From: Rhizaria sp. SCN 62-66
Lineage: Eukaryota
Direction of reading: 5' to 3'
Assembly: GCA_001724265.1 (NCBI GenBank)
Contig: MEDY01000068.1
Location: forward strand, 1 to 64,000
DNA: 64,000 nucleotides
Made by a program: the position numbers and the translations under genes. The notes under the pieces were generated by a model. It had not been told where the DNA came from. It worked only from the letters and a program-made list of their open reading frames with translations, and searched no databases. Shown piece by piece: positions 11,710 through 54,200 of the stretch; position 1 is the stretch's first letter, and every line of letters begins with the position of its first letter.

Positions 11710-12177
11710 TCTACAGCCATACAACAAGTGCACGGGGTGAACAAATGAGATATAAGTTTGAACTGGCAATTAAACATGTATCATCTGGGTCTTGATGTGT
11801 GTGACGGATTATGGAGTGCGATAGAGACATGAAGTTTATCGCAGTCGTCGCCCCAGTCTGATCGAACTCGGACTAAAAGGATTACTTCGCCCGAGTGCCA
11901 ACGTTTTTCTCCAACGTCTCTCATGGTTAGTCTGCCGGGTGCTGATTCAAAATACCCCTACTCGCGACGATTATGCGTTCTTGTCACATCGTTGTTACGT
12001 GATATTACACGCATATTCGATCTGTCTGCCATGTCTTCTTGCATATTTTCACTTTAAAATCCCCTCAATCCCCGCGCAACTTCCCCAACTATCCCCCTCT
12101 TCCCCGTCCCCAGCCCCCCCTACCCGACCCAACCAGCCCTCCGTCCGCGCGCTCTCAGCTGCCTCCCCGCCCCCCGC

Positions 12178-17375: not shown

Positions 17376-18149
17376 ACAGTGCTGTGATTTGTCGACAAAG
17401 CATAGGCAGGGGACAGTCAGAGGAGATGACGATGCGAATGGCGAGAAACAGCGGAGAGAAGTGTGCAAAGGAGGATCAAGACGCAGACGAAAAAAAAAGA
17501 GGATGAGAAGATAAGAGATGTACAGCTAGCTCTTGAGATACATTGAAGTTCACGTGTTGTTGGCATGCTTGCGGTGCAAGGTTGAACCGGAGGTCAAGGT
17601 CGACGCGACCGACGAGCACCATGCACATTTCACGCCCAATACCCCACTCGCCAGTCTGCGTGTTGTCAGCGTATGTAACAAAAAGAAAAGAGTCTACATG
17701 ACGTGAAGTACGCGACTAGCTCACTAAATCCCCCTATACTCCGCGTCGTCACTCCACAGTATCATTCGGCGCAAAACTCCATCAATCGACGAGAAGGGGC
17801 GATCGTGGTCGTCGAGCGCAGCAGCTGAGTGAGTTCGCAAAAATTGTGTGTGTGGTGGCTTGCTTGCTTATGCACTGTTTTTTTCTCGTCCAATCAGGTG
17901 GGCCCCTCAATTTTTGCATTGACCCGGCGTGCTTTTCAAAACTGATGATATCGCTGCATTTACGACCGCTCAGCAATGCACGGTTGAGCACAGATGAATT
18001 TCATTTTTATATCAAGCTGTACTTAAATTCACGCAACAGTTTCGGCCATTTATACGGCAGGATATCTCGTTTCAAAATTCCACCCTTGACCTCATCGAGT
18101 CGCATCCTCTCTTATCATATGCTTTGCCCAACAGCCTTCCCCTCTCCCG

Positions 18150-30000: not shown

Positions 30001-33000
30001 TGGGCGCGACAGGGTACTGGTACGAATCGCCACTCAGCGTGGCCGTGACTTGGCCGTTGGACGTGGCCTGGAAGTTGTACGGACCGTCGGCGCCGGGAGA
30101 GGAGCGGCACCGCAGCAGCTCGAGAGTGTCACCGCCGTTCTGCGCAACCCAAAGGGCCGGGTCGAAGCACTCGTACAGCAGGTTGCTGACCGAGTCGCCG
30201 TACTTAAGTTTGAGCAGAGCTGCGTTGGCCGCGAGCGTCACGGCGTCGAAACTCGACACAGTGACCATGTTGGTGACGGCCATGACGAGGAACTCGCCTT
30301 CTGTGTACGCGCCCAGTGCGAGGCGGGCGCTCGGGGACGACACGGGGTCGATCAAGGAGAAGAGACCGGAGTGGGTCGTCATGTCGGCGCTCGCGGACGC
30401 GTTGTAGAGCTTGATGGTGCCGTCGACAAAGGTCGGCGCTGGGAACGACAGCGCGTCGGCGCCGACGTTAGATACGAGAGTGTAATCGCCGGAGCGCGTC
30501 TTAAGTTGGAAGTACACCGCAGAGCCGAGGCCGCCGACGAGGGCGCAGGTGACGGCGTGAGCAGTGTCCTCGACAACGATCGACAGGGACGAGCACGTGA
30601 ACTGCGCGGGAGAGCCGCTGACGCCGTACGTCACAGTCGTGTTGGCCTGAAAAAAAATATTCCACAAAAGAAAAGAAAATATAAGAATGTAAGAGCGATG
30701 TTTCAAATAGAACAAAATTTCATTGCAATGAAAGAACAAAAGACTTCCGTATGTCATCATGGCAAAGAGAGGGAAGTAAACGTACCTCGAGCACAGAGAC
30801 ATCAGCCGAGCCGAGCTTCTCGACACGGAACGTCACGCTCTCGGTCGATCGAGTCGACGCGACAGAGAACACAATGGCCGTGGAGCCCGAGGGCGCGACA
30901 TCACTGGCCGCGCGCAGCGTCGCGGTGATGATGCGGGGTCCACTGTAGCTGACGCCGGTGAACGTGGTGGTCTTGGACGTGGTCGTGAGCGCTACCACGG
31001 GCAAGTTGTTGCCACCGGCGCCCGAAGCGGGGAGCTCGCAAACGAACTGCTTGTGCGCAGTCACCTGCGAGACGTACAGGCAGGCGACGCCGCCGACGGT
31101 GATGGCGAGGTAGTTCGCGTCCGTGGCAGCCAAGTCGCCGAAGTTGTCACCGGTGATGGTGAGCCTGATCGCGCCAGTTAGCGGGCAGTCGATGGGGCCC
31201 GTCGTAGGGTTCGAGTTGTCGCAGTCCGAGTCGCCCGTGACCGAGGTGATGACGGGCGCGGCGCGGATGATGGCCGTCGAGGGCGCCGACGACTGGCTGT
31301 CGACAGTGACGACGAGGTTCTTGTTCGCGGTGCCGGCGGGCAGGTGGCACACGAGCTGCGTCGCCGTGGGCAGCGGGGACGCGACGAGCGGGCACGTGAC
31401 TGATTCGCTGGCGTAGATGATGGTGATTAGCGCCGTGTTGATGCCCGAGTAGCCGAAGTTGGTGCCCGTGATCGTGATGATGTTGGACCCATCGGTGGAA
31501 AACGACCCAGAGGCAGTGGTGATGGCCGTAATCACGGGCACCTTGTACCCCACAACGGGCGAGGTGATGTTCTTCCAGCTGTTGGCAAACACACCCGTCG
31601 CGATGTCGACGTCACCGGCGAAGCAGATGTCGACCGTAGCGACAGCGCCGGAGCCCTTAGGGAACGCGCACTCGAGACGCTCGTGATCCCAGGCATACCG
31701 CAGCGGGCAGTCAAGCCCGTTAACGAGCACGGGACCCGCGCCCGCGGCAAGAGTGCACGTGGCGGCGCCGAAGTTGGTGCCCGTGATGGTGAGGAACGTG
31801 CTGCCGTCCGTCTCGCCCGCCGCGGGCGTCATCCCGGTGACGGCGGGCGCGTTGTAACTGAACCGCGCCTCGGGGTTCGTCAGGGCGGTGTTGCTCAGGG
31901 AGCTCGCGGTGACCTTGACAAAGAGGTTCGTGCCGGAGCCAGCAGGGCTGGTGCACTTGATGCTGGTGTAGGTGACGTCACTCGACGACGTGGGTGGGCA
32001 CACGACGCCGTTGATCTCCACCACGGCCGACGGACTGAACGACGTGCCGATGATCGAGAGCACGGTGCCGCCCTTGGTGGGGCCGTTGGCCGGGGTGACC
32101 GAGGTGACGTACGGCGGGTTGTAAGACCAGCGTGACGAGGCGTGGTCAGCCGAGTACGTGCCAGCGACGAGCACCTGGACGGGGATCGCGGTGCCAACGC
32201 CAGAGGGCGTGGTACACAGGATCTGCGTGTGCGTCACAACACCTTGCGTCACGCAGGGCACGTACGAGCCGTCGATGTAGAAGTACACGGCGCCCGTGAG
32301 GCCGAAGTTGGTGCCGACGACGGTAAGAGTCTCGCCACCGCCGGAGCGGCCGCTGGTGGGGTTGATAGACGTCACCACGGGCGCGTCGTAGCGGAAGCTC
32401 ACGTCGCCGGTGTTGCTGGGGTAGATGGCGTCAGTGGAGCCGACGGCGACACGCACGGCGGCATCGCCCTCACCGGCAGGAGCAGTGCAGACGATCGACG
32501 TGTGGGTGCTGTTCGTGATCGTGCACGGCTGCGAGCCCAGCGTGACGGTGGGCGAGGTGCCGAACGACGTGCCCGTGATGGTGATGGAGAAACCACCGGC
32601 GGTGGGGCCGTTAAGAGGGGACACGGACGTGATCGCGGGGCCGTTGTAGCTGTACGTCACTGTGCCGGAGAGCTGGTTGCCCGCACGCACCTAAAGGTGA
32701 ATAAGCGATCAAGTCAAGTCGGAGAAAAAATAAAATAAAGTGAGGGTACGTGAATTATACTTAAAGTTTGTTTGAAAATAAAAATAAAATAAAATGCCAC
32801 ACATTTGACAACCAAAAATGACAAAAATGTGACTGTTTTACGATTTTGTTTTGTTTTTACGTGCCTGGACGAGGCGGTTGGTGCCACCGCCGACGGGGGT
32901 GATGCACGTGAGCGAGGTCTGCCCGGCATTGACGGCGACACTGGTGCAGTCCTTGCCGTCGATGGTGACCGTGGCGACCGTGGTGAAGTACGTGCCCGTC

Positions 33001-36000
33001 AGCGTGACGGTCTGGCCACCGCCGGAGGGGCCGTTGTCGGGCGAAATGGTCAACAGAGTGGGCGCGGCGTAGTTGTACACGAGCGTGTTGGACACCTGGC
33101 CGGCGACGGTGACCTGCACGACGTGGCCACGGGAGTAGAACACGGGGGTCAGGCAGATGATCTGGACGTGGCTGTGGCTCTGGACAGCGCACGTCAGGTT
33201 GCCGAGCGCAACCGAGACGGTGAACGGCGTGTTGACCGTGCCAAAGTTAGAGCCGGCGATCGTGATGGCCGAGCCCGTCGTGGGGCCGTTCTGCGGCGTA
33301 ATCGTCGTCAACACAGGCGGCAAGTACGAGAACGTCGACAGCGACGAAATGAAGCCGTTCTGAGTGCTGACTTGCGCGTACACGTTGGCGCCCTCACCGT
33401 CGGGCAGCTTGCAGATGATCTTGGTGTGCGTCCACGTCTGAATCGCGCAGTTGGTGTTGACGTTGATCGACGACACGTTGCGGGCGAAATCAACGGAACC
33501 AACCGCGGCGGCGAACGACTCACCGGTGATGGTGACAAGCACGTTGGCGTTGGTGGCCCACGTCGTCGCCGTGGTGGGCTCGAACGACAGCAGCACAGGG
33601 TACTGGTAGGACCAGGCGAAGTAGGTCGGGGTGGCGTAGTCGGTCACTCTCATGACGACCCAGGCCAGGCCCATGCCGGGAGGAGTGGTGCACACGACCT
33701 GCGTGTGGGACCACGAGCCGGCGACGGCGGTGCACACGCCGATCTGCGACTCGGTTCCGGTGAACCTGAAGTTGTCGAGAAAGAAAAAACAAAGAAAAAA
33801 CAAACGAATTAGAGAAGATCATTACGTATATCAATGATGCATATGCGAATGAAAGACAAGAGCTTGCGCAAGCGACGAAGAAACGTACGCAGAAGCGCCC
33901 TCGGCACGTTCGTAGATCTGGACGGTGCCGCGCAAGAGCACGTTACCGAACGACACACCAGTAATGGTCAGCGGGTCGCCACCGGACGTGGGGAGCACAG
34001 ACGGGGACACGTTCTGGATCACCGGCGCACCGTAGTTGTAGCCCGTGAAATTACCCGACTGGCCGTTTGTGGTGACGGTGACGACTTGGTTGATGCCGTT
34101 ACCGGCGGGCAGCGTGCACTGGATCTGAGAATGATTGAACTTGTTCGCCAGAGGAGGGCAGTCGGCGCCGTTGATGGTCACAGTGCCCTAGGATCGTCAA
34201 GGGAAAGAGAAAGGCAAGAGGAAAATAACAAACCATGAGTGTGGCGAGAGATTTGATTGGCGCAATGTCAGGAAAGAAAACATGCAACTTGCAACATTTC
34301 ATTTGTTGAAGTTCGGAAAGTTACAGCGTATGGGAACAAAGACGTACCTGAGTGTAGAAGTTGGAGCCCGTGATAGTGACCGTGGAGCCACCGGCCGTGG
34401 CGTAGTTCAGCGGCAAGATGGACGTCACCGAGGGCGCCTGGTATGAGTACAGAACAGTGGCAGACGACGACGAGTCGGCAGTGGACACACCAGTGACTAA
34501 AAAAAAGAAGAAAAAAGAACAACACAACAAAAACACAAAATATAATTGGGTCCTCCTATTCACGATAACAAAATAAATCAGCATGGTTCATTAAACAGTG
34601 CGATCATGACTTTCGCTCACAATAACAGCGATGCAGAGAAAACGACGTACCGACGACCTCGACGATGAGGTTGGCACCAGAGCCGGCGGGCATAGTGCAG
34701 ATGAGCTGCGTGTGCGAGGGGTTGCCCGTGGCGTTCTTGGTCGGACAGACGACGCCACCGATACGCGCAAAGGGCGACACACCGAAGTTGGTACCCGTGA
34801 TGGTGACGTCATTGCCGCCGATCGTGGAGCCCGAGAGCGGGGAGGCGCTGGTGAGCGTGGGCGCGCCGTAGGTGAAATCCACCGAGTTGGACTCGTGGCT
34901 ACCGGACATAATCATCACGGGCACAGTGCCTTCACCGGCGGGCATCGAACACACGACCTGCGTGTGGCTCGCCGAGCCGCCTGTGACGGCCGTGGAGCAC
35001 ACGTTGCCACCCACGAGAGCCGAGGGCGACGTGCCGAACGAGGTACCCGTGATGGTGAGCAAGTACCCACCCTGCGTGGTCGTGGACGACGACGAGATGG
35101 ACGAGATAACGGGGTATGCGTAGCTGAACTGCGTGCTCGCAGTGACCGAGTAGCCACCGGCGTCGACGCGGATCGGCACAGAGCCCTGGCCGGCAGGAGT
35201 CTGGCACTGGATGCTCGTGTGCGCCGTGTAGATGATCTGCGCGCACGCAGTGGCGCCGACATAGGCGACGGGGGTGGTCACGCCGAAGTTGGTACCCGTG
35301 ATGAGCAGCCACGTGCCACCCTGTGTGGGACCCGTGACGGTACCGGTGACGTTGTCGCGCAGCACGACCGAGGTGATCGTGGGCGGCAGGTAGGAGATCT
35401 GGCGTGAGTTGGACTCGTACGTCGTGCCACCGGCCGCGTTGCTCATGTACACGATGATACCAGAGCCCTGTCCAGACGGGGGCTTGAACAGAATCACAGT
35501 GTGGTTCCACGTTGAGATGCGGGCATCGTTGTACGCATACGCGGTGTTGTTAAAGTACACCTGGCACGTAGCCGAGAGAACACCGAAGTTGGCACCAGCG
35601 AGCGTGATCGTCGTGGTACTGGTATCCGTGGGGATCTGCGAAGGCGTGACCGTGGACAGCGAGGGCGTCGCGTAGCTAAACAGCGAGTTGGTCGCAAACT
35701 TGCCCGTGCGCGCAGTAACGCGGATCGTGCGCGACGCACCGTAGCCGGGCGGCGTCGTGCAGATGATCTGCGTGTGCGACCACGATGTGACCGCGCACGT
35801 GTTCCCGTCCAGAGTCACCGCGGAGCCAGTGCCCGACGTGTCGAACGACGTGCCCGTGATGGTGATCGACGTGCCGCCACTCGTGACACCCGTGAGCGGC
35901 GACACGGACGTGATGGTCGGCGACGCGTACGAGAACAGGAGCATACCACTGTCACCAGCGGGGGTTTGCACGTACACATTGAGGTTGTCACCGGAGCCGA

Positions 36001-38308
36001 CGGGCAGGGTGAAATAAACGTTGGTGTGCGACTGCGACGTGGCAGGGGTGGAAGCGCCGTTGAACATCACCGACGCACCGGAGAGACCAAAACTAGCGCC
36101 GGTGATGGTCATGCCGATGCCGCCGCCGGTGGGGCCAGTGGCGGGGGACAACGAGCTCACAGAGGGGCCGTCGTAGGAAAAGGCGAAAGAGCCCGTGCTG
36201 CTCTGACCACCGACAGTGACCAAGATAGCGTGGTTCTTACCCGTACCGACAGGGATCAAGCAGAGAATCTGGGTGTGCGTGAAGCCAGTTCCCGTGGGGG
36301 CGCAATTCATGGTGCCGATACGCACGAGACCCGTGATGCCGAACGAAGTACCCGTGATGGTCATCGTGCCACCACCGGACGTCGGCGAGTTCAAGGGCGT
36401 CACTGCAGTGATCACGGGCGCGTTGTAGTTGAACACAAGCGACGCCGACGTTGTTGTCGACCGGTCGAGCACCGTCACCTTGACTGGCAACGCGGTACCC
36501 ATGCCTGCGGCGACGGTACACAGGATCTGGACGTGTGTCACGGTCGATGCGGTACACGCGACGTTGTTAATCGTGGCGTAACCAGACACTCCGAAGTTAA
36601 TACCAGTGATGGTCATCACGGAGCCACCGGAGGTGGAGCCGAAGTTGTTGCTCAACGACGTGATCGAAGGTGGATCATAGCTGAACTTGTCGGTCGCAGT
36701 AACGGTGCGCGTGCCAGCCGTGGCGGACAGCGCGAGGTTCGTCCCTTCGCCGGCGGGAATCTTACAGATGATCACGGTGTTGTTCGCCGACGTGCCGGAA
36801 ATGGTGAGAGGATTCCAGGAACACTCCTTGGGGCCGAGCTGGACCGTGGGCGCGGTGTAGAAGTTATCACCGAGGATCGTGAGGAGATCGCCACCGGCCG
36901 TGGCCTTAGCAGCCGCGGACCACGACGCGATCGACGGCGCGCCGTAGTCGTACGATGTCTGCACCGTGCGGTTGTACGCCGTGGTGACGCGGATTGCAAC
37001 AGTACCCATGTTGGACGGCATGGTACACGTGATCACCGTGTGGTTATGTGCACCGACGACGGGGCAGTCCGTGTCCTGCACACGCACCGTCGCGCCAGAG
37101 CTGTAGAAGTTAGTGCCCGTGATGGTGATGGCGTAGCCACCGATGGTGCGGCCGCCTGCGGGAGTCACACTGGTGATGGTCGGCGCGGAGTACGGCATCA
37201 TACGGTTGTCGGTCGACTGGCCACCGACAGTGAAACGCATCGTGACTGACGACGCGCCACCGGCCGGGGCAGTGAAGACGATCTTGCTGTGGTCGACGGA
37301 GGTCATCGCGACGGTCTGGTCGTTAAACGACAGAGTGGTGCCACCCTGGGAAGAGATGACGGACGTCAAACCGGCTTGACCGAAGTTCTGGCCATTGACG
37401 GTGACGACTGCGCCCGCAGTGGGGATCTCGGTCGGAGACACGGAGGTGATCACTGGGGGCGAGTAGGAAAACCACTCTGAGTTAGAAATCTTGGCCGACG
37501 TGACGTAGATGACGATCGGGATATTGGTACCAACGCCAGTCGGGACCGTCATCACGGTGCTGGTGCCGTCGGAGGCACTTCCCGCGCCAGCCGTGAAGTT
37601 GGTGCTGTTGTAGCCATAGCCCCAAATGACACGCATCGTCGATTCGGCCGGAAAATGGTTCACACCGCTGATGGTGAGGGGGTAGTTACCCGTGGTGTTG
37701 CCCGTGGAAGGCGAGATTGAACTGATCGAAGGCAGCAAGCAGATGTCGATGTAGTTGACGCAGCAGTCACCATAATCGAGGCAGCTACCACCACAGTAGC
37801 AGCCGTTGGGGACACGGGAAGACTTGGTGCCTAGCACGCACTCGGGACGGCAGATGGAGTTGTAGATCTTAAGATGGGTCTCTGCGTTGGCGGTGTTAAC
37901 AGCCATATTACGAAGGAAGGTGTTCTTGTTACCGGAAGAGAGGGAGGTGTAGTCAGCAAGAACAGCATCGCGGGTCTTGCAAAAAGAACGGAAAATGTTG
38001 GCACCCTTGACCTGCGTGCAGTAGTTTGCTGTGTTGGTGTTGCCGGTACCCTTAGTGAAGGTATCGGCGGCCTGACAGTTGGCCAAGGTACACGCTTCGT
38101 AACCAAACGTCTGCGCAGCCGCCGGCGCAACGCCCCACGAGAGCAGGAGCGCGACCGCGAGCAGCAGCAGAGACGACGCGCTTGAGAACAAGCGGCCGCT
38201 CCGACGATTGTGCTGTGTGGTGCTGTGTAGGTGTTGCGGGGGCGCATCAGCTGCCGCGCTGGGAGCTGCGGCAGCAGGGGAAGCTGGACGCCAGAAAGAG
38301 AACAACAT
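21076..38308 (-). CDS. giant cell-surface protein, 15 exons, ~4,961 aa: signal peptide, somatomedin-B-like domain, ~25 IPT/TIG repeats, Cys-rich GCC2/GCC3-type (ephrin-receptor-like) repeats, ~9-TM module, acidic Ser/Gly tail
   Basis: Exons 38308-34651, 34496-34348, 34187-33889, 33765-32865, 32690-30786, 30646-28847, 28672-28202, 28018-27404, 27198-26629, 26446-25979, 25772-25629, 25442-25122, 24973-24458, 24290-21967, 21820-21076 sum to 14,886 nt, in frame. Motifs CYCGGSCLDYGDCCVNY, repeated PxITSVSP..GG..ITITGTNFG, CxxCxxGxY, and LGFLYAGYK..WWEIV..NPY. Confidence 0.9.
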
Positions 38309-38904
38309 GGCGGTGTTGCGCTGTTGTTCCGTCGTCGGCTTCGTGCGCGGCGCGTTCTCGTTCACGCGGGAGTGAGAGCGAGACGAGCGGGGGGCGAGGG
38401 AGAGCAGAGGCTCTGGCGCTGCTGAGAGAGAGGCTGCAAGAGCCAGGACGCGCTGAAAACCCTGGACAGCAGGTCAGGGGGCAGTCCCAAGCAAAAAGAG
38501 AGCCTGAAAACGGGGCTTAGGTCTCGCAGTTAAGAGAAACGCACGCTACGTGCGGCATAAAAGGAGCGGAAAAGGGGGCAAGAGCAGAGTCGTTTAAGAA
38601 GGTGGGGTGACACAGAAAGTCAGCTAAAGCGGTGCATAACGACACCCGTTTCAAACAGGAGCGCACAAAAAGACGAATGATACCCTCAAAAATGGTATAC
38701 TATTATTAACTCGCCCTGTAGTCGACCGCAAAGTTGCCAAGTGAGCCGGCAAAAGCGTCCTGGCAGGTTTGGTTTCTCCCTCTCTCAGTCAGACTGTGAG
38801 CCGGCTTAACTTTCGATCCACCACAAATCGTTTTTGGATTGCTTTGAAGCTAGAGTGAGTGCTCAGGAAAGATCTGCTTTGCGTGCCAACGGCCGTTGAT
38901 TCAA

Positions 38905-39577
38905 ATGGCGACAAAAGAAACGCTTGCTTCTCGCCGCGAGAAGCTTGAGGAAGATTTAAAGCAGACTCAACGTCACATCTATGATGGCGAGGAGGCCTAC
39001 ATTGGTACGCTCTCTCCCAGTGATAATTCCATGACAAAGCACAGTCTCATTCGTTATCCTCCTCTTTATTAGAAACAAAGCGGTATACCCCAATTTCTAT
39101 CGCATAACAATCGCTTGGTATCATTTTCAAGGATGTTTGTTTGGCTTCGCACACAACTCACTTCCCATTCGCGCCTTGCGACTCGCTTTCGCGTTCGCTT
39201 AACTTGCCTCTGTACTGATCTCTTCTTGCACAGCTGAGACGAGCCACTACGGCAACGTCGTCAAGGGCTGGGACACCTACCTGGCCACGACCGACATCAA
39301 GGCCCCCCACAGCTCTCGCAAGCCCAAAGTGAACGACAAGGACCGCGTTTTCACGCTCTCTTCCCCTTCCTACGTCACTGAGGACGACGGTCTCGACGAC
39401 GACGACGACCTCGGCGGCGGCGGCAACGTCGGTGGCAGCCACCACCACGGGTACCTTGACTCGTCCTCGGCAACTGATAAGCACCGCAAGAAGACCACCG
39501 GTGGTGGTGGCGGCAGCGGCGCTGCTGGCGCGGGCAACGCTGGACGGCGGTACAGGGATGACGATCTCTACGATTGA
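38905..39577 (+). CDS. EAF6: NuA4/MYST histone acetyltransferase subunit Eaf6 (MEAF6), 2 exons, ~147 aa
   Basis: Exons 38905-39004 and 39234-39577. RREKLEEDLKQTQRHIYDGEEAYIAETSHYGNVVKGWDTYL...DRVFTLSS matches the Eaf6 signature (IY..E..YL.ET..GNI..GWD.Y...RLFS.SS). Confidence 0.9.
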
Positions 39578-40234: not shown

Positions 40235-41880
40235 TTAGGCCTTTCTAGACGCACCCTTAGCCGCAGCGTTGATCGCAGCCACCCATGCCACCGCCCCTCC
40301 ACTTGCATTCACCTTGCCAGCACTATCAGGCGCAGTTGCAGTTGCAGGCAAGAGCAGAGGCCGTGGCACCGTAACTGCGACCGCGGCGGTCGCTTTGCCG
40401 CCGGCAACAGGGACAACGTACGCAATGGGGGCGTCCAGCACGGAAATATCGAACGAGCGCGCACTCGTCGCAATGCTCAACTTGCCGCTGGCCCCCGCTT
40501 CCTTACTAGGGCCGGCGGCGCTCGTGCTCGCGACGGCGGTGCGTAGCGGAGTCACGAAGCCGGCCACAGTTACAGCCTTCACGCCACCAGGACCACTCGC
40601 CGCATGCGCAGCTGCAGTGCTACTGCTGTTGCTGTTGCTGTTGCCGCTGTTGCTGTTGTTCTTCGCGTTCGTGCTGCTTGTGGAGCTATTGTCTGCGGGA
40701 GCGGCTTCTCCAGGTAAACGGACATATGCGAGCACACTTACACCGGCCTTGGAGCCGTCTAAGGGCTCGCTTACATCGTGTAAGGGCGTGATCAGCGCCA
40801 ATGTCCTGGTTTTACGCGACAAAATCTTGAAAAAGTCCCACCTCGCCGTCTTGCTGATCTTGCCCACAGTCACCAAGTACACGCCATCGACGTCTGAAGG
40901 GGTGCTTGGACTGCTGTGCGACACAGGAGGCCCGCCCTTAATGCTCGTGAGCGCAGTGTTGGACGCAGAAGTGACAGTGAGCACGGTAGAGACGAGCGAC
41001 TTAACTTCCGCCTCAGTCTCGGTCTCTACGCTCGCAGGAGCAGACATTGCAGCAACAGTAGAAGTAGCAGCATTAGATGCGCAGTCCACAGCGTCGTCGC
41101 TGTCGCTAGAGCTTCCACTTACGCTCTTCGTGCTACTGTTGTTGTTTGCGCGGGCGTATGCAGTGGCAGCTGCGGCGGCAACGGCGGCCGCAGCCATCTC
41201 AGCCGTCACAGCAAGAGCAACATGTGACGCGTGTCCGCCGGCGACCGCCGCAGCCAAAGTCGACTGCGTCGCGATTAAAGACGTGTGTGAAGCAGGAGCC
41301 GTGGAGAATGACGCGACATTCATCGGGGTATATGATCCAAAGGCCTCCAACTGAGACCGCGACTGCGGATGAGGCGATTGTGATGACACACTGGAACTGC
41401 TGTCGTTCAAGGTGGCACCCGCGGTGCATGTGACGATCGGCGCAATCGCCGGCTTAGCTTTGCTGTTGCTCGATGAGCTCGACGACGATGCGGCTTGCCT
41501 TTCGCTGCCGTTGTTGTTTTCGGCTGCAGCACTGGAGCTGGAGCTGGAACTCGTGGCGGTTTGACTTTGCTCACCCGCCGCGCCCGCAGCGATCGCGTCG
41601 TCGCTTGCAGCAGTGACGAGCAGAGCATACGCGTCAGCCGGTAAGGGTGTAAGTAGCAGGGGGCCTAAGGGGGTCGCCCAATGGGTGTAAGTACCCAGCG
41701 TCGGGGTACTTACATTGTTGAAGTGACTGTGAGAAGGACGGCGACTAGTCGAGGTCGTGGTGCCTACAGCAGCGACCTCAACATCAGCAGCAGCAGCAGC
41801 AGCAGTCGTCGCCGCAGAAACAGCAGTGATCTCAGTGAACGGCGAATCAGCATTGTTCGTACCAGTACTGCTGTTACTGC

Positions 41881-41934
<54 letters not shown>

Positions 41935-43143
41935 CGCTATTGTTGTTGTCGTTGTGAGAACGAGTGAGAGGACCGAAAAACTCGTGGTTTGCGATGGTCT
42001 CTCCGTCTGTTGCGGCGTTAATACCAAGCCGGTGTGCGGGCTCCTTCTCAAGCAGGCGGCTTAACAAATCCCCCGCTGGGGTCCCGTCCAAGCACCCCGG
42101 TAATGTAAGGGGCCGCGCGGGGTCAAGAATCGCCTGAAACGTCAAATACTCGGAATCCCCGTTAAAGGGCACAATACCCGTGAGTAACTGGTACATCACG
42201 ACACCGAACCCCCACCAGTCCCCGCCGCGGCTTAACTTCTGCCCACGGAGAAGCTCTGGGGAGACGTACTGAGCAGTGCCGACAAAAGAAGAGGCGCGTG
42301 CGTTGCGACGGGCGTCGATTTTCGCATCCTCATCGTCCATCTCAGCCACGGCGACGCTTTCAGGCTGGTTCTTATTGTTGTTGTCGTTGTTGTTGTTGTT
42401 CTAGTTAGACTCAGGGACAGTAGCAGAGGCAGCAGCAGCAGTGACGGGCTGTTTGGGCGCTGTGAGCGTGGCAACGAGGTCGGCCTCGGCTTTTTTGTCC
42501 TCCTCGGTCAAAATCTTCGCAGTGCCGAAGTCAGTGACCACTACGTGCCCGTCTTTGCTGAGGAGGATGTTGGAGGGCTTGATATCACGGTGGGCGACAC
42601 CCTTGCTGTGCATGTAGCAGATTATTTCGCACAGCTCGGCCGCAACGCGGCGCACCGTGTCCAGGGGGAATGTCTTCTCGGGCTAGAGAGAAAGAGAGAG
42701 GCAACGAAAGACAATGGAAGCAGTGTAGAGAGCGCTACATAAAAGTAGGTTGGGAGTGAGACAGAAGGATGGGGATAGAGCACAAGGGGCGATTGTTGCA
42801 GTGACATATAATAAGCGCGTACCTGCAAATAAAGGATGTCGTATAGTTCGCCGCCGTCGGCGAGTTCCATAACGTAGTAGAGAGAGTATGGGTCCTGGAA
42901 CGTATAGTAGAGGCGGGGGATGCCCGGGTGGCCGGCGAGCAGCTGCAGCACGTTCCTCTCATTGATCACGGTTGCGACCTTGTTGTGCTTCTGCACAAAC
43001 GCCTTGTCGACGATCTTCATAGCAAATTTCAACCCTGTGGCCTTTTGAGTCGCCTCGTAGACCTTGGCAAAGGTGCCCTCACCGAGGAACTGGCCAAGCT
43101 CGAAGTCTTCGGGCCGCGCCTTTTTCGCCGGGGTGGACGCCAT
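40235..43143 (-). CDS. PDK1: PDK1 (3-phosphoinositide-dependent kinase, PDPK1/Pkh type) with an in-frame TAG at 42403-42401 and a degenerate C-terminal PH-like region
   Basis: Exons 43143-42823 and 42682-40235. Motifs [66 protein letters not shown] are PDK1-specific. The ORFs ending at 42401 and starting at 42349 share one frame. Confidence 0.88.
41882..41932 (-). repeat. (AAC)17 coding microsatellite (poly-Asn) in PDK1
   Basis: Perfect GTT run on the + strand. Confidence 0.9.
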
Positions 43144-43959
43144 GGTTCTATCGTCAAAGTCGCTGCAACAAAGCTCGCAGGTTTTCTTGCTAAGTTAACT
43201 GTTCTGGTATGAAATTGTAACGGAAGACTCCTTCGTCTTCTGCACCAAACCACACTTTTGATCTAGTCGCTCAGACAGTTTTCTCTTTTGCCGTCCGACC
43301 AGTGGCAAATTTACACTCCCGGTCCCAAGGCAGATTGGGGGGTGGGCTCGTAACATATTATTTCACGATCAAGTATGAAGATGATTATGAAATAGTTATT
43401 CATTTTGTAAGATATATTCATTCCTCAGCTCCGTTTATTGCGAACTATTTTATTTATGTGGTATGAATCATTTTCAGGTCCATATCCATGATTCACCCAA
43501 AAACTAGATCGACAATAATGTCAATAAATATGTCAATGCATTAAACATTAATTCGTTCTTTTAATATTAAGTTTCCTCGAAATTTGAAAACATGAGTTTA
43601 TTTCTTGATTCTGCAAGTATCTGGGCCATAACCAGTTGTCTCGAAGTCAGGTTTCGTAAGTGGCACCAGCCGCCTTTCACGGTTGCATAACGTAATGAAG
43701 ATATATTTCTGAAATGAGGACTTAATTCCAAGAAAAATTTAAAACTCTGCTACAAAAAGTATATTTACATCAAAGCCTACGTGAAATGTTTCTTACACAC
43801 CATGTCTATAGCAGATATATGCCTCTAAAGTTAGGTTGCCAACAACGCGCGCAAAACCTACTTTGCGTTTGGATAGCTAGCGGTTCGGGGATTTTTAGGA
43901 GAGGCTTCAAACGCCTGTATTAAATGAAAATCTCAAGTAAACACAACCGTCACAGTCAC

Positions 43960-44460
43960 AGAGCTCGCGTCTAACGCGGTCAGACGCTCATCCCGCGCGT
44001 GCCCGCGCCGCCGCACGGCGACGCAAGTTCAACCGGTGGCCGATCGCGGATGAGCTGCTCTGGATGATGCAGAACGCACTGACGAATGCGCCGCCCGACA
44101 ATGGCGCCGTGCTCACCGTGGCGCTTATGCTGCGCGGCTCCGGCGTGGTGACCTACCGCGCAGCGGCGCTGGCCGCCGCGGCCACGCTACCCGGGGCGCC
44201 ACCCGACAAAGCTGCGAGGCCGGCTGCTTGTACTCTTGCGCACGATGATTGAGACTGGCGACACGGGTGTGGGCCCCGAGGTGCGGGCGGAGGGCGCGGA
44301 GCCGCGCAACGTCTTCCTGGCCGACTTCGATGCGGCTGGTGGCTGCGACGCGCTGGTAAGGTTGACGCAAAACCAGCGGGTGCTTGTCAGCGCATGGAGC
44401 AAAGCGAGACAACTTCATTGGCTTTTGGCGAAAACTCTGGGCGTCCTCACCAATGCCTAA
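43960..44460 (+). pseudogene. frameshifted fragment resembling the C-terminal ARM repeats of importin-alpha
   Basis: GC-rich island in AT-rich flanks. WPIADELLWMMQNALTNA in one frame, then LLVLLRTMIETG...NVFLADFDAAGGCDALVRL...WSKARQL in another frame after ~44210. No N-terminal part is visible. Confidence 0.4.
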
Positions 44461-45218: not shown

Positions 45219-48200
45219 TTACAGTTCGAGCTCTAAGTCACGACTCTCACTGAATCGGAGCGCTTGCTCTGCTTGCTTCTGTGCATCCACAATAAGTCGT
45301 TGTGCAACGTTTTCTAAGCTTAGCTGCAGTGCAGCTGCGGTTGGCGGCAATAACCCGGTGTTGATGTCACGCCCAGAGTCGATTGCGCTTGCCAATATCG
45401 CGCCACGCTGCGTTGTGTTAATGGTGTCGGTCTGGTTTTGATATGATGCAGAAAACACTTTGCCTGTGTCCACAGTTCCACAAGTGCTTGCGCTTGCGCC
45501 CGAACCTAAACCCAATCCTGGACTGGCGCTGTTTTTGTCACAATCAAATGACTGCAGCCCAACCAGAGCCTGCGGCGCGATGCTTTCGTGCGCATGTTCG
45601 CAGATCAAGGTCAGTGATTTGACCAGGGCGGACGTCGGTTCCGTGCTTTCTGGCTCAGTTTCAAAGACATTCGACTCAGTGCTGCTCGGAGCCATCGGCG
45701 AACGAGGGTACGGATGGAGAGGCATTTGAGTTGACACTTCGGATTGCTTGTTTTTTGGCGTGAACTTATCATCCTCTTGGGGAGCAGTTGTTTTTGCAAC
45801 CAATACATTCAAGCTTGTCGCTTCAGCGCAACGGCGCTCGCGCGCCCTGACAATGCGCCACTCACGGATCACAGCGGCTGTCTCCAGACCCTGGGCGTGC
45901 GCTTCACGCAGAGCATTGCGGAGTGGGACGAGCGCGGCTTCTTGTTTTCGCAGCATGAGGAATGCAACAACAACGGCGACAATGAAGAGAATAACAATCA
46001 CGCAGATCAATACCGTGATAACAGTTTTGGCCGACTCACTTACTGTGTCAACGAAGAGAAAATTGGCGAGGAAGAAAACCATGAACGACATGAAGAGAGA
46101 GAGAAGTTCAATCATCTCCGGTATCTTGTTTTCAAACGGCTTCAATGTGATCTGGAGCAGGATTGAGACAAAGATCAAGAGCGACGCAAGCAATAGCTGC
46201 GTATGGAGCGCACCAGGAAAAAAGACAGCAATAGCGACTAAACCAGCTTTACGTATCATTTCTATAAGAAACCAGTAGTAGCGCGTGGGTTTGTAGCCGC
46301 GATACAGGAACGCCATCTGTGATTCGAAAATCTTCTTCAGGTTGCGTGTGATTGCAGACGCACCCTGGACAGACATCATCACCAAATTTCGGTTTCGATA
46401 GATCGCAAACCACGCAAAAAAGGGGATGCCAAGAACCCAACAGAATAACATTGGCATTGCGAGCGCAATAATAAACATAAGGTGCTGCGACGAGTAACAC
46501 CGTTCAAGCATGTCGCCAAGCACGACATTTGCTGAGGGGTCGTCGGAGCCGCCAACGTTCTTGCAGGAAAGCATAGTAAAGAATTGACGGGCAATATTAG
46601 GGTGAATGAGGAACATCACGACCGTGATCGTAGTAATTACGTAGCCAGAAAACTCAGAAATGATGTTGTTATACTGGGTTTCAGCAATGTCGAGACGAAC
46701 ACGCATCTCTGAAGCAGTCAACTTTGGTGGATCTGCCTTGAGACGCATTTCACGCAACTGCGTAAACAGTATTACACCTTTCATTTCACCGTAGTTGTCC
46801 ACATACCATTGCCGCTGTTGCTCCGCGCGCACGCGCTGCAACTTACGTTCCCGACGTAAGAGGTTTTCACGAAGGAGCTCTGCATTGTAGAGAATGTCAA
46901 ACGGCAGAGACGACAGCAGCCGCATGTTCTCCAAGTCATCAGCGCTCTGAACGACACGCGCAAAGTCCACTGGGAGTTTCGCCTTGCGCGTGGCCTCTTT
47001 ACATTTCTGGGCATCAAACACGGGGGTGTCGCTTACAATAGCGGTGTAGGCGTCAACCTCGCGAGCCACACACTCGAATAATGACTCCCGACTTTGATTC
47101 ATCATTGCGTACGCGTGCTCAAGCGCTGCTTCACTCACACTGACTTCATCAATCAATGTACGGCGCATAAAGAACGCAGTGTCATCACCGACTGCAGCGC
47201 CTGTGAAATCAATTGCACTGGGGGCGGGGGCAGTGACGTTGAGATCTGCAAGATCAATGTCGCAGATTGATGTGTCAGTCGACTTGAGCGGTGGGCGGCG
47301 GTCATCACGTGGACTCTTGCGCGCCATCGGCAACGGACGAGAGATAAAAAGAGGGGACTCAGAGTCATCGTGCAAGTGAGGGGGTACGGCTTCAGCGGCA
47401 GCGGTTGTCTCGTTACAGTCCTGATCGTTTTCGCTTGCGCGGCCGCCACAGACGCTGTCGTCGTCAAAGAAATTGTTGTGCTCGAACACGATGAGAGAAT
47501 CGGGGTCTTCTTCATAACTACTGTCAATTGGCATGTCGTCAGTAATGCTTTGAGACTTGGCAGGTAGCGCGCGCGCTACCGCCACAGGCGCCTGTTCATC
47601 AGCGACTATTGCACGTGGCTTAGTCCGTATTAAGCCATGGGGCAGCATTACCTGCGGCTTAAGACTGGGGAGCTTTGGGGTTGCTGGATCATAACTAAAA
47701 GGATGCCTTGCGTCTGCATCAGATGTGGAGTCACCCGACATCGGTGACACGCGAACACGCGTTGTCTGCGCACGGCGCGGTGAATGAGCCATCGATAATT
47801 GAGTTCGCTTGGGTGTTTCGGTTAAGCCAACATCGATGTGCAATAAACCAAATGCTGGGGGCACTACAAACGAGCTTCCCACAAGCTGAAGACTATCGGA
47901 GCGCAATTGGGTGGGCGGATTGGCCGCATCTACATGACGGGAATCTTGCATCTCCGGACGCACACGCATGGGAGAGACCCTCACGCGGTATCCCTCAGCG
48001 TTGTACGAGATCCGCATGGGGGACTCATCTGCACGACGGATGTTTCGAACCGGTGGGGGGGACGAGTAGAACTGCTGTTGGGAGCCGGGGCTCACACCAA
48101 GCTTCTGCACGGCAGTCGAGTTGGAGTTCGGCGAGGTTGCACACCTGGTCAACCGAGGGAAACGCTGAGTCGTCACATCCACGCGTACGTCGCGTGCCGG

Positions 48201-51200
48201 TGCGGGCGGCTGGACAGGGGGCGCAAGGGGGCCTGCTTCTGTAAAGTTACCGGAGAGCTCATTGATTGGACTCTTCCGTACTAGCTTGCGGCGCTTTCCA
48301 GCGGAGTCGCGCACAAACACCGATTGTGCTCCGAAGTTTTGCTTGATGCACAAGTTACGATCAATTGAGGCGTTGTTAGTCGGCTTGGCCTCCTGTGGAT
48401 GTGCTGTCAAAGCACCAGAAACCATGCACATGTTTTTATCATGATTAGTGGTGTCCAAGGCTCCTGTTTCAATCTCGGGCAAGTAGTGCGCGGATGCGGC
48501 AGCTTCGTGTTGGGCTTTAGCAACACGATCACGAGTGCGCATGTTGCTCTCAAACTCAGTCACAATCTCAACCATCAGTCGACGCTGCTCAACCATCTCA
48601 GAAAGTACGCGTTTCTTGTAGTTGCGCTTTGCGATGTAGTACAGCGGCATAAAGAAAAGCAGTGGCAAGATGATGCCCATGATCGGCAACACCATGATGC
48701 CAATACACGTGACCCAGAATGGGCTAATGACTGGATTGTCTCCCAGAAAGCAATCGACTGATACCATCGCGGTTCCAACGCCAGCAGCGGTGTCACTCCC
48801 TGTGAAAAATGCATCAAGGAAGCCGGGCCATCGGAGGTCGTATTTGCTGGCAATAGCCATGACTTGAAGACCAGAAAAAGCGATCTTGAACAAGAGGGGC
48901 ACTGCAGGCGCAGGAAGCTCATTCATCGACTCGCGACCGTCGACAATTTGTTTCCAGGCCAAGACGGCGCAGACAATAATCGCAGCAAGTGTGCCGGCAA
49001 TGATGATAAACCACGCGAGAGCGGGATCGTTACAGCGACCACATTTAAACACTGACGTTTTTCCGTAACCCGGCAGACAGATGCTGCACAGCGGGCCGGT
49101 ATGACCCTCAACGCAACCGTTTCTACCGGCGCAGGTTGAGTCTAAGCACGTCTGGAAAGACAACACTGCATGACGAGTGTAGTTTCGGTCAACCATAGGC
49201 GCACCTGCAAATGCCGTCTCGATCGCGAGTGCACTGTTCTGGGCGTTGAAGTCTCCCAGAGCAGCGTTGACTAGTTCCTGTGCAGGGGGTTCCAAGGAAC
49301 TAGTCGGAGGAAGAACATCCACCATAACGTACAACGTAAGCCGCCCACTTGGGGCTGGCACAGCGGCCTGTGGGCTTACAGCTACAGCTGACACATTGGC
49401 GGGAAACGCATCAAGAACGGATTCAAATACAAAGCGGCTGCGTGGTCGCGCACCAGTGTCGAAGAGGGCCTTGATAACAAGGCGTTGCGCACTGCGGCTG
49501 GCGTCAGAGAGAGAGACGTTATTAGCGACGTTGACGGGAAAATATGCACGGACGACACTTGGCGGGTTGCGGTGCGTGACCGACGGGGCATAGGACTTCA
49601 TTGATAGAATGTTATAGACTGAAGTGCCTGGAAGTGAACAGTCTCCGCCAGGCATGCAGGGCTGGCAAACGCCGTCAATGTTCTTATATGAGCCCGGCTT
49701 GCAGTGACAGAATGAATAATCGTTGGTATGTTCGGCGCCTAATGGGCAAGCTTCGCATTCGAAGCTCCCTTCGTGTTCGGCAAACGTACCAGGAGCGCAT
49801 TGAAAGCAACTCTCCGCGCGTTCCCTCGAAAACGTACCTCGCGGACAGAGAGAGCAGCTGGTTTGACCGAGCCCCGAATAGGTGCCGATAGGGCAGATGG
49901 AACAGGACATTGCTCCATAACGATCAGAGTATGAGCCCGGCTGGCATTCTCGACAACGCGTTTGAGACCAGATGTCATTGAAGTAGCCAGGGGCGCATGG
50001 AATACATTCAATATTGCTGCTGTGTTGTCCAGGTGGGCACTGAGCATACGACAACAAGACCTTATCTTGAGACAACTCACCATACCGCTGCAGTACCGTG
50101 ACAACATGATCAACAGAGGCATCAGCAGGCGCAGTGCACATAATTTCTTGGTGAGGATTGGCTGCTAGGTGTACTAGATCCCTGCAGGGCAGGCCACCAA
50201 TAGTGACGGTGCTTCCAAATGCGCCAAAGTTGTGACCCCGCAAGAGAATCCTGTCACCACCGTGACGATTGCAGCCGTAAATGCTCAGAGCTGTGCTGCG
50301 CTGACAGCCGCGAATCTCACTGATGGCGGGAATCGCGTAATTTATGCGACCGCGAGACTCAAAGCGCTGCGAGCCGGCTATGACAGTGAGTGATAGCTGG
50401 GAGCCGCAACCAACGGGAAGCCTACACGTAAACTGCGTGTTGCTCTCGCGAACAAGCGTCAGACACTGAAATCCACCGACCATGGCTTGCAGTGGCTCTA
50501 AAAAGCCTGTCCCTGTAACAGTAAGCCGCACGGTTCCACTGTCAGTTGGACAGCCGGAGGTAACGCCGTTGACAATGTCGTCACTTGGGCAGCCAAATAC
50601 AGAGGAGATAGAGGGTAATTGTGGGTACGAGTACGTGTCCGTAGAATAAGCAGCGCGATAAGCAATAATTAGTTTAAACTTGAGATTGATCACGTTCACA
50701 GCGTCTTTGGTGCGGCAGACAATTGTACGCTGGTCCGGGCTGCGAATAAAAGAGAGTTCCTGATTGAAGATACACTCATAAGGATAGTCATCATGTGTGT
50801 TACCAGCACCGTACATCATCCGGACTAGGCCAGCTCGCTCGAGGAACAAGTTTTCAACGTCAAACCCAACGTCTTCACCAAGGCTTGTCAGACTCACATA
50901 GTCACTCGTGCGCTGACCAGCCCCTATAAGTGTTACAGCGTGCAACGAGGATGGAATAAAATAATGTAATGGGTACGAAATACGAACGCCACTGTTGGCC
51001 CAGCGTGCATCCAGCCCTGCACCGGTAGACGTGCCGTCCCAGGCCCAGTTCCAACGCGAGCAGTCAACATCTGACTCATTATTTTGAACCGCATTAGGCT
51101 GGACACAATACTGCATGCGCACATACAGATCGGCGCCCTGACCTGCGCTTAGAGTGCACTGAACCCGGAAGTACTCTAGTGACTGCTGAATAAGCACAGG

Positions 51201-54200
51201 AGTTACGAGAACGTCCGTGCAGTTGTAAGTCGCGATGTTTGGATTGGGGTAGAGTGTCATATTTGTGTTTAGGTACTGTACGTGGGTAACAAACGGCGCA
51301 GCGACATTAATACCTGCATTGAGAGTGAACACAACAGTCTGGTTCCCGCGCGCGTTGTTAGGAGTAACCTCGCGTGTCTCAGCGTTGTAGCTCACACTGC
51401 CGTCGGGCGACGCCACCGACTCAGGGAGGATGTCAAGAGTCATATGTGGCGTGCAGACGTAGGAGCCAAACGTATTGATGCAGCGTGAGTACGGTCCATA
51501 GAGCGCAGCGCAGTCTGCAAAGTACTTGCCGTTGAACAGCCCAGGATCGCATTCGTCGATGTCGACGCAGGTTGGTGGAGCTGGGAGCCACACTGCCGCA
51601 GCCGAGCACGTGCGCAAAAAGCGGTCCTGTCCCGTCGAGGGCGTGAAGCCAGGCTTGCAGCGGTAGATCGCAGTCGACTGGTAGCGTGTGGGACCAGCAA
51701 CAACAAGTTCGTCGTACTCAAACTCAATAGGCTCGCTGTACGCGACAGTGCTGTCTTTGTCCGGACGCCCACAGTCAATAGCACCACACACAGGCGCAAT
51801 AGCAGGGATCCACCCCTCTGAGAGTGTTCCACAACGGCGCTTCGATGAGGTAAGGGCGTCAGTGACCGGGTCGCGCGGCTCGTAACCCGACTTACACACA
51901 TATGTTGCCGTGGTGCCGTATGAACGCGCAATAAGACCGCCATTACTCGTGCTTAATGCGTCATCAAAAACAATACTTGCTCCGTTCCTGGGAGGCTCCA
52001 ACGGGATGCACTGATTGACATCGCAGACTGGCAGCGAGAACGGAAACCAACCTCGCGGTGTGCACTCACGACGTGCTCCCAACACAAAGGAATTTTGCTG
52101 AGCAAACTGTACAACGTAACCAGTGCCATCTGTAAGTGTGTATCCGTCGTAATGTAAGTTATAACCAACATTGCAGCGGTATTCGACGGTCGATGTGTTC
52201 AGATACATACCCAGACGGCCGTATGTACCGCTGTTGGCGACGCTGACTTGAGCAAAAGCGATGTTTTCTGGGACGCCACAGCTAAAAGGAAAGCATGTGC
52301 GTGGTGGACTCGACCACTCACCAGTTGCTGTGCAGGTGATATGAGGATCTGAATGACTCATAATAGCACCATACTGGCAACTGAATGAAGCGGTGACGCC
52401 GTACATGTTCACCAGATTCTGCGGCGCTTGAGTGACCGAGCCGAGATCAACGGGGGTGAGCGTGGGGCATGGCTGCGGGACACAACGTGGGGCGTCAACT
52501 GGTTGCCATCCGTCCGACAAGATGCACGTGCGCGTTGTAAATGTTGTGTCTTTGTCCCAGATGTATCCGTCAGCGCAAGTATACTGAGCAATTGTGTCAA
52601 CCAAGAAAGTATTCGTGACGGGGTTGTGTGGAACAACACTTCCATACCGTGTGAACACAATATTTTTCATCATAGTCGGTTCGTTGTAGAGGCTCACACA
52701 GGTGTTGGAGCGGCAAGTCGGTGCTGTGCCTGACCAGGTGCGATTGGCTTGGCATACACGCACCTCGTCACCTTCAGTCCGGATGTGACGCGCAAGACAT
52801 TCGTGCGTGGCAACAGATTGAAACTTACGCGTACCATATGGCAATGCAGAGTAGGTAATATTGCCAACGTTGTTCGCGGTCACCAAAACAGGACATTCAA
52901 TCGGCACGCATGAAGGTGCAGTCGTAGCGCTCCAACCACCAGCAGTACAAAAGATATCTGGACTGCCTGAAAGGTCGAAACCGTCAACGCAGCCGTATAA
53001 GTAACGCGAACCGAATGATGTTGAGTTTCCTTCAGGCGCAAGCTCGATTTGCACTGGCTCAGTGCCAAACGTTGGGTAGCGCTCAGGCACTGGCCCGCAG
53101 TTAAATATCTCGCAAGTTGGCGGCAGTGCAGACCAACCTGTAGCGAGACATGTCATCCGCTGAGTGCAAGTTGTGACCGGCGGAGTTGTCAAGGTGTTGA
53201 CAATGCAAGTCTTATTTGTGTTGTCTGTGACGAGAAGCTCATAGCCGGCATCGCAGCTCACGTAAGCATCTGATTTGTAATGCGTAATACCAAATCCATT
53301 GTCATGGTACGTTGCACGACCGTGAACAGTCGTTGCAAAAGGAAAGCAGTCAATCAGTGTGATGCTTATAGGATCAGAAGTGAACGACATAAAGGCAATG
53401 CCTGCGATACTATGAACTACGATACGAGGCACTGCAGCCCCTGCAGCAAGCCCATCATGATACGAGTGCGTAAATGTCATACACTTAAACCAAAAGTCAA
53501 ATCTAAGTGCGTACACCACAGTGAGCTCAAGGATGTCGTTTGAAAGACTAACCCACGTGCTAGGATCAGGCTCGCCGCCAGTAATGGTGTTTAACCGAGC
53601 TCCAAAGCAGTTTGCATACTTTGAGTCAACCGTAATCGCCACTTGAATTGAGCGACCAACAGCGTTGACGGCGTTCTGAGGTAGGAAAGATACGGTGATT
53701 AATTGAGGTTCCTGAGCATGAATAGCGCCTGGCAACGTGGGGATGTCAAAACGGTTTTCAACGGCAAACGGCGCAGTTGTAAACTGACCAAAAAAGACAG
53801 CAGCATTGTTGACAATTGTGAGCTGAACGGACGGATTCGCGCTGCTGCAGTACAAAGAAAACATAAACTCAGCGGCACCAGCGGCGACGCTGAAACTAAG
53901 ACTGGCTTTGAATTGCGAAATAATCGTAATGCTGCTGAGCGCTACCTTGCAACTGGCCAAAGATGGTGTGATAACGAACGCTGAGCTCGCCGTTGGCGCA
54001 GGCATAAGCCGTACACGCACACTATGAATACGCTCTACTGCAACACGGTCTAGAGTTGTGGGCGCAGACAACGGCGGGAACGTGACTGTGCGCTCTAGCA
54101 AAGCGTCTTCAATCCAAATCGCTCCACGAACGCTGAATGGTGCACTGCGAAAAGTGTCGTACAGATCATCCTTGGCGTTTGTGATCACAATAACGGCCGG

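Follow-up and report, generated by a model that had tools for sequence, protein, structure and literature searches.

A TAG codon in the catalytic domain of a PDK1-like kinase gene of Rhizaria sp. SCN 62-66: a genuine stop in the DNA and perhaps a fixed nonsense allele

A PDK1-like kinase gene on the minus strand of the window, by which we mean the whole 64,000-nucleotide stretch of contig MEDY01000068.1 of Rhizaria sp. SCN 62-66 that was analysed, is interrupted within its catalytic domain by a TAG codon that is genuine in the DNA and not a private base-call error. The explanation that we place first, and that we hold tentatively, is that the TAG, which borders an (AAC)n repeat within a loop that is disordered and specific to the lineage, is a nonsense codon that has become fixed in this two-exon gene. 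An earlier sequence-only reading had listed a nonsense allele among several alternatives; it is now the most likely of them, the base-call error and a proposed 45-nt intron having been set aside and no support for recoding having emerged.

The position of the stop follows from direct reading of the minus strand, where the letters are ...CCT GAG TCT AAC TAG AAC AAC AAC... and the TAG occupies 42403..42401. Upstream of it the frame is open for 93 codons from 42682 (PEKTF...HRDIKPSN...DFGTAK...VPESN), and a further 721 open codons follow it as far as the TAA at 40237..40235, with the C-lobe motifs all present, so that the run of about 720 codons reported by the sequence-only reading is borne out. 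The same reading had placed the stop within the kinase domain, and this was confirmed both by the minus-strand letters and by the Pfam Pkinase matches on either side, of which the one preceding the TAG covers positions 93-156 of the family and the one following it 151-258. Pkinase matches were obtained on all three pieces of the gene. The TAG lies in the last exon, between DFG and the SFVGTAQY activation-loop motif, and the order of elements along this exon is catalytic loop, DFG, TAG-bearing insert, activation loop, C-lobe and a long low-complexity tail. An RNA contig (X5) covers the part of exon 1 from 42823 to 43063; where this cDNA contig ends, at 42823, it carries 11 loose letters that equal window positions 42672-42682, which gives the spliced junction of intron 1. 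The features of the gene are collected in Table 1.

Table 1. Features of the PDK1-like kinase gene and of its in-frame stop, in window positions
Feature	Position	Strand	Basis or status
Exon 1, kinase N-lobe, 107 codons, ATG at 43143	42823..43143	-	Pfam Pkinase positions 2-89, E 1.5e-18
Intron 1, 140 nt, CAG/GTACGC...CTCTAG, GC 0.47	42683..42822	-	X5 cDNA junction
Exon 2 (last)	40238..42682	-	ORFs, Pfam; RNA contigs X5 and X6 flank the TAG
Activation-segment insert, 69 codons including the TAG	42299..42505	-	DFGTAKILT to the activation-loop motif
Candidate 45-nt in-frame intron, GTCACT...CTAACTAG	42401..42445	-	Judged not to be an intron
In-frame TAG codon	42401..42403	-	Direct reading, X3 DNA contig, 84-aa product; AAC on each side
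(AAC)n microsatellite, 8.7 copies	42375..42400	-	Tandem Repeats Finder; starts directly 3' of the TAG
TAA terminator, full-length frame	40235..40237	-	ORF calls

Both lobes of the kinase match PDK1 best. Against PDB, the best 21 rows for the N-lobe were PDK1 (one of them deposited as 'PkB-like'), with E values of 3.5e-20 to 7.9e-19 and AKT following at about 1e-14, while for the C-lobe PDK1 (2.2e-18) was barely ahead of AKT (6.7e-18); the named top database matches were likewise PDK1. The C-lobe shows 59% identity over 111 aa to that of the closest PDK1, P0001, and the SFVGTAxY motif followed by (S/P)PE is present at 42298..42248, with S, F, V, G, T, A and Y forming invariant columns in an alignment of 10 PDK1 sequences. 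The gene therefore resembles the PDK1/Pkh/ksg1 AGC kinases in its lobes and in its activation-loop motif, and also in possessing a variable insert after DFG, as protist and fungal members do. It is unlike them in that an uninterrupted catalytic-domain frame, a trait of PDK1, is here broken by the TAG, and in that its C-terminal part of about 570 aa is a low-complexity tail with runs of Ala, Ser, Thr and Asn in which a PH domain is not detectable. The last 233 aa matched no Pfam family at E values up to 10; P0001 matches PH_3 (PF14593) at 8.5e-15. Comparison by hhalign with the 10 PDK1 sequences gave a probability of 0.2%, with the terminal helix alone aligned, and the traces of a PH domain at 40235..40936 (minus) are faint and statistically unsupported. 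The domain may be masked by low-complexity inserts, and because it is not detectable we have named the gene PDK1-like. No relative above about 55% identity over the region of the stop was found in the protein or metagenome searches. Among 80 of the 532 confirmed metagenome-contig relatives, the top one reached 55% over a short segment and one shorter match 67%, and none came from the same organism or a close relative.

The insert that bears the TAG is itself of low complexity, consisting of poly-Ala/Ser and poly-Asn. The closest relative, P0001, carries a translated insert of 37 aa at the equivalent place, and the insert is long in two further protist PDK1s as well (P0002 and P0003). The TAG occupies a variable, non-conserved, lineage-specific insert, presumably a disordered loop.

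The sequence-only reading had kept open the possibility that the TAG was a base-call error, and this can be rejected because independent assemblies agree. A 722-letter DNA contig from another study (X3, record 5) corresponds to 42207-42928 with equal length, no other letters and no gaps. In addition, an 84-aa predicted protein (P0121) that is 100% identical to the translated gene ends in ...VPESN exactly at the TAG, and this product has been called on 6 contigs. That the TAG adjoins the (AAC)n repeat might suggest a sequencing or assembly artefact at the microsatellite border, an idea to which the identical contig of the independent study and the six calls of the stop-terminated product leave hardly any credibility. 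A protein search centred on the TAG and restricted to sizes of 66-210 aa returned 2 matches, P0121 and an insect PDK1 fragment, and neither is a form that bridges the TAG. No run-through ORF was present among the matches of a second protein search, covering 262-2000 aa, in which any run-through allele should have given a near-perfect match and the best match found was just 47% identical. Among the stored sequences the stop is thus present on 6 contigs, and a sense codon on none. An exact 60-mer taken from exon 2 had no match in genome_contigs. Runs containing the TAG stretch belong to several studies, are dated from 2015 to 2025, and come from bioreactor, wastewater and activated-sludge samples, and the stop appears to be fixed in the populations sampled. 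The strain differences seen within the gene number only two, S>T and S>N, both of them in the low-complexity tail.

In general experience, unrecognised introns are the commonest cause of in-frame stops in eukaryotic gene models. This favours unconventional or minor splicing by which the TAG would be dropped without loss of frame, be it from every transcript or from a smaller, functional share of them, as do the letters CTAAC directly before the TAG. The sequence-only reading had proposed a 45-nt intron running from GTCACT to CTAACTAG. Such a sequence does exist, at 42445..42401, but its splicing is strongly disfavoured by its donor score, its GC content, its length and the collinearity of the RNA. 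In order to score donors, a matrix was built from 26 donors of the window, mostly GTACGY, of which 2 were confirmed by RNA, 2 by continuity of the kinase domain and 3 by a reading frame that continues on the far side of the intron, the remainder being deduced from their place at the ends of coding ORFs. On their own matrix these 26 donors score 7.5-15.6 bits, whereas all ten GT sites in 42300-42560 score between -5.4 and -13.7 bits, and the GTCACT donor of the candidate scores -5.6 bits. The 7 introns that were measured are 140-229 nt long with a GC content of 0.29-0.47, as against 45 nt and 0.56 for the candidate, a GC content similar to that of the surrounding coding sequence.

The RNA contigs point in the same direction. 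X5 runs collinear with the window between 42602 and 42415, reaching 31 nt beyond the proposed donor, and a polyA RNA contig (X6) does so between 42363 and 42076. The TAG could be taken out in frame by 84 GT/GC..AG pairings, and every one of them clashes with these contigs, having either the donor within X5 or the acceptor within X6. The read-laying tool had masked 42364-42414 as a repeat, and X5 enters the mask by 5 letters and X6 by 26. The sole GT inside that masked stretch would give introns of 10, 40 and 46 nt to the AGs found there, none of them a multiple of three. Since X5 contains exons only and has two spliced junctions, that of intron 1 and another at the neighbouring Eaf6-like gene (39003>39233), it behaves as real cDNA, yet 4 runs, with the mask covering the 20 nt around the TAG, gave no splice joint at the TAG site. 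Among the records displayed no RNA contig bridges these 20 nt (42390-42409), which on account of the mask is evidence neither way, and rare isoforms are lost in contigs. On inspection by eye no U12-type donor resembling ATATCCTT or GTATCCTT was seen near the TAG, and P0001 translates its insert at the equivalent place. A hidden intron across the TAG is unlikely, and the TAG is most probably retained in the mRNA.

The 5' splice sites of the window are unusually uniform, since 20 of the 26 donors read GTACGC or GTACGT, often after CAG or G; examples lie at 42822, 39005, 3858, 4249, 28846, 24457, 25121 and 25978. The seven measured introns are AT-rich and stand within GC-rich exons. The portion of the literature available to us held nothing useful on a GTACGT donor consensus. 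A likely GC-AG intron of 174 nt (32864..32691, minus; CAG/GCACGT...CCTTTAG) separates two exons encoding TIG repeats and otherwise fits the local donor consensus.

If the TAG is retained in the message, its meaning to the ribosome has to be considered, and one possibility is a change in the code of the whole organism. According to Panek et al. (2017, PMC5304391), nuclear codes that alter UAG alone occur in the rhizarian exLh, where UAG is read as Leu, and in Iotanema spirale, where it is read as Gln, and in a known code of this kind 71 genes contained 384 in-frame UAGs, frequently at conserved sites. The present case is like these in having an in-frame UAG in a conserved and otherwise intact gene and sampled terminators that are UAA and UGA only. 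It is unlike them in that, in place of hundreds of in-frame UAGs, many of them conserved, there is 1 in 16,883 codons, counted over the 39 coding-likely ORFs of the window, and this one is at a non-conserved position.

The sequence-only reading had described the stop as the only TAG among about 16,000 modelled codons and had argued from this against full reassignment; the recount agrees with the description, and the argument is upheld and indeed strengthened. An ORF of 6,259 codons has no TAG in frame, as compared with 54 and 33 in its two off-frames, from which it follows that TAG is barred from frames as strictly as TAA and TGA are. Codon usage is only mildly biased (CAA 103 versus CAG 209, for example). 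The conserved isocitrate dehydrogenase, IFT56-like, NEK-like kinase and Eaf6-like genes can all be read without translating any TAG. No tRNA gene of any kind was found by ARAGORN within the 64-kb window, and an Rfam search of the whole window gave no matches.

With respect to terminators, the statement that no gene in the window stops with UAG held good, for there were 5 TGA, 6 TAA and no TAG; the number of modelled genes that could be counted was 11, however, and not 12. TAG makes up 20% of the stop-like triplets at 12,236 non-coding positions, and at this expected share the probability of finding no TAG among 11 terminators is 0.086, so that the absence is not significant, the sample of 11 also being too small. 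One in-frame stop and a small sample of terminators do not amount to evidence for a code change. The organism otherwise behaves as one with the standard code, and genome-wide reassignment of UAG is unlikely. One form of the idea would be that UAG is a sense codon or is ambiguously suppressed throughout the organism, at a very early and rarely used stage after its capture in which TAG no longer serves as a terminator. The absence of TAG stops, the otherwise intact frame around the lone TAG and the existence of UAG-only codes in protists speak for it, but in view of the codon counts, the terminator statistic and the lack of any tRNA gene in the window we regard it as very improbable.

A local bypass of the stop is a more serious competitor. 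The sequence-only reading had proposed that recoding or readthrough of UAG gates the kinase, a proposal for which no positive support was obtained, there being no leaky context, no structure and no tRNA gene in the window, and the stop statistic not being significant. As a specific hypothesis, a large share of the ribosomes would pass the UAG to make full-length PDK1, with the stop acting as a translational throttle, and they could do so by near-cognate readthrough or by a +6 hop in which the peptidyl-tRNA-Asn leaves the AAC in front of the stop and pairs anew with the identical one behind it; alternatively, an incipient UAG-decoding tRNA could be at work in a genome whose TAG terminators have largely been purged. 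Deliberate bypass of this sort we consider a possibility, though a doubtful one. It would account for a stop that is fixed across assemblies, for a downstream half of the kinase that is intact and well conserved, and for the RNA found on both sides of the TAG. A disordered loop would also tolerate any inserted residue or a deletion of one residue, and a stop in the last exon should not be subject to mRNA decay that depends on splice junctions.

Against these points stands the context of the stop. Leaky contexts include UAG-CAR-YYA and a stop followed by C, and the UAG AAC AAC AAC found here matches neither consensus. Nor is there structure downstream, the minimum free energy of the 114 nt from the UAG being -22.1, where shuffled sequences average -22.5 (z 0.12). 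Programmed readthrough is exemplified by the retroviral gag-pol UAG with its downstream pseudoknot, by the tobamovirus UAG-CAR-YYA and by Drosophila kelch. The kinase gene shares with these a single in-frame UAG that is followed by a long, functional-looking ORF, but it has neither a matching hexanucleotide context nor a downstream structure, and its stop splits a catalytic domain where theirs separates a core protein from an extension. To our knowledge there is no programmed stop inside the catalytic core of a kinase.

As for hopping, ribosomes were reportedly found by Weiss et al. in 1987 to hop over a stop between matched codons in E. coli reporters, and the identical AAC codons directly before and after the TAG recall that arrangement. 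The edge of an AAC repeat would, however, be expected to yield matched flanking codons by chance, and we know of no natural stop-hopping in eukaryotic cytosolic translation. No relative is close enough to show whether the stop is conserved.

A further way in which the intact downstream half might be used is as a separate polypeptide, the N-terminal half ending at the TAG and the C-terminal half starting from an ATG, through reinitiation or an internal transcript, and the two then assembling. An in-frame ATG is indeed present at 42339..42337, 63 nt 3' of the TAG (GAG ATG GAC), and the break falls in a surface loop. Reinitiation after an ORF of about 200 codons is inefficient in eukaryotes, however, no sign of an internal transcript start was found, and we know of no precedent for a PDK1 in two pieces, so that such an arrangement is most improbable.

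Several results speak for the nonsense allele that we tentatively prefer. The TAG is real in the DNA and keeps its standard meaning elsewhere in the window, there are no usable splice sites and no recoding signals around it, and it is situated beside a microsatellite in a variable insert, which has 69 codons in this gene and 37 aa in P0001. Its simplest origin would be that a single letter was substituted in a poly-Asn/Gln stretch, turning, for instance, CAG into TAG. Translation would then normally end at the TAG with the release of a half kinase of about 200 aa that extends from the N-lobe to DFG, and full-length kinase would be made only through basal near-cognate readthrough. If so, the allele would in effect be null or strongly hypomorphic, and it appears to have reached fixation in the populations sampled. 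Its carriers presumably tolerate it, either because PDK1 function is dispensable or because it is covered by another copy. The undetectable C-terminal PH domain could possibly be counted as gene decay. Such an allele would be like an ordinary nonsense allele of a last exon, in which a lone in-frame stop interrupts an otherwise intact, transcribed gene that lacks recoding signals, and in which a microsatellite adjoins the mutable low-complexity stretch that contains the stop.

It would be unlike an ordinary nonsense allele in its apparent fixation across every assembly seen and in affecting a family of kinases that can seldom be dispensed with. PDK1 is essential in many eukaryotes, and a fixed null allele, with no sense allele among the 6 contigs, is therefore unexpected. 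The 721 open codons after the TAG, with every C-lobe motif kept, also count against a nonsense allele, but an intact downstream frame says little if the mutation is recent. The RNA contigs on both sides of the TAG indicate that the gene is still transcribed; it is from contigs flanking 42390-42409, and not from a displayed record that bridges it, that the TAG is placed in the mRNA. The lack of TAG among the terminators of the 11 genes leans weakly towards TAG being unusual in this organism. The fixed stop, the intact C-lobe and the transcription on both sides keep a functional bypass alive as a lesser possibility, with an incipient code change as a far smaller one beside it.

The two outcomes differ in what they would mean. 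A plain nonsense allele would be a minor matter, since it would mean that an uncultured protist has a single kinase gene that is broken or hypomorphic. A true bypass would be a rare case of recoding within the catalytic domain of a central signalling kinase, and it could mark an early capture of UAG in a lineage without a known code variant. PolyA metatranscriptomes that contain the kinase gene exist.

Several other parts of the window deserve mention. Upstream of the kinase gene, polyA RNA contigs (X6) cover 43339..44420, an apparently gene-free stretch in which the ORFs of at least 70 codons that were examined had no Pfam match and in which Rfam, as elsewhere in the window, found nothing; this RNA may represent a transcript that is not annotated or else a long 5' UTR. 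At the other end, a small gene on the plus strand (38905..39577), with one RNA-confirmed intron of 229 nt, runs convergently towards the kinase gene's 3' end, and from its MATKETL...EEAYI motif we tentatively take it to be Eaf6-like.

The window also encodes proteins of a giant size. The 6,259-codon ORF (45219..63998, minus) is free of introns and open at the end of the window, so that its length is at least this number of codons; Sushi, TIG and ephrin-receptor-like matches are confined to its C-terminal half, and its first 3,000 residues have no Pfam match. The region 21076..38473 (minus) holds a multi-exon gene, or a pair of genes, for a giant surface-type protein with many IPT/TIG and ephrin-receptor-like repeats, NCD3G and somatomedin-B matches, and a membrane tail similar to PFF1_TM.

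Two conserved genes lie further along. The NADP isocitrate dehydrogenase at 15562..17525 (minus) has four exons, and its environmental relatives are 83-91% identical, with alphaproteobacterial enzymes at about 72%. At approximately 12058..14915 (plus) there is a multi-exon homologue of IFT56/TTC26 (PDB 8bd7_E, E 4e-34 for one exon), which indicates that the host is a flagellated eukaryote, that is, one with a flagellum or cilium.
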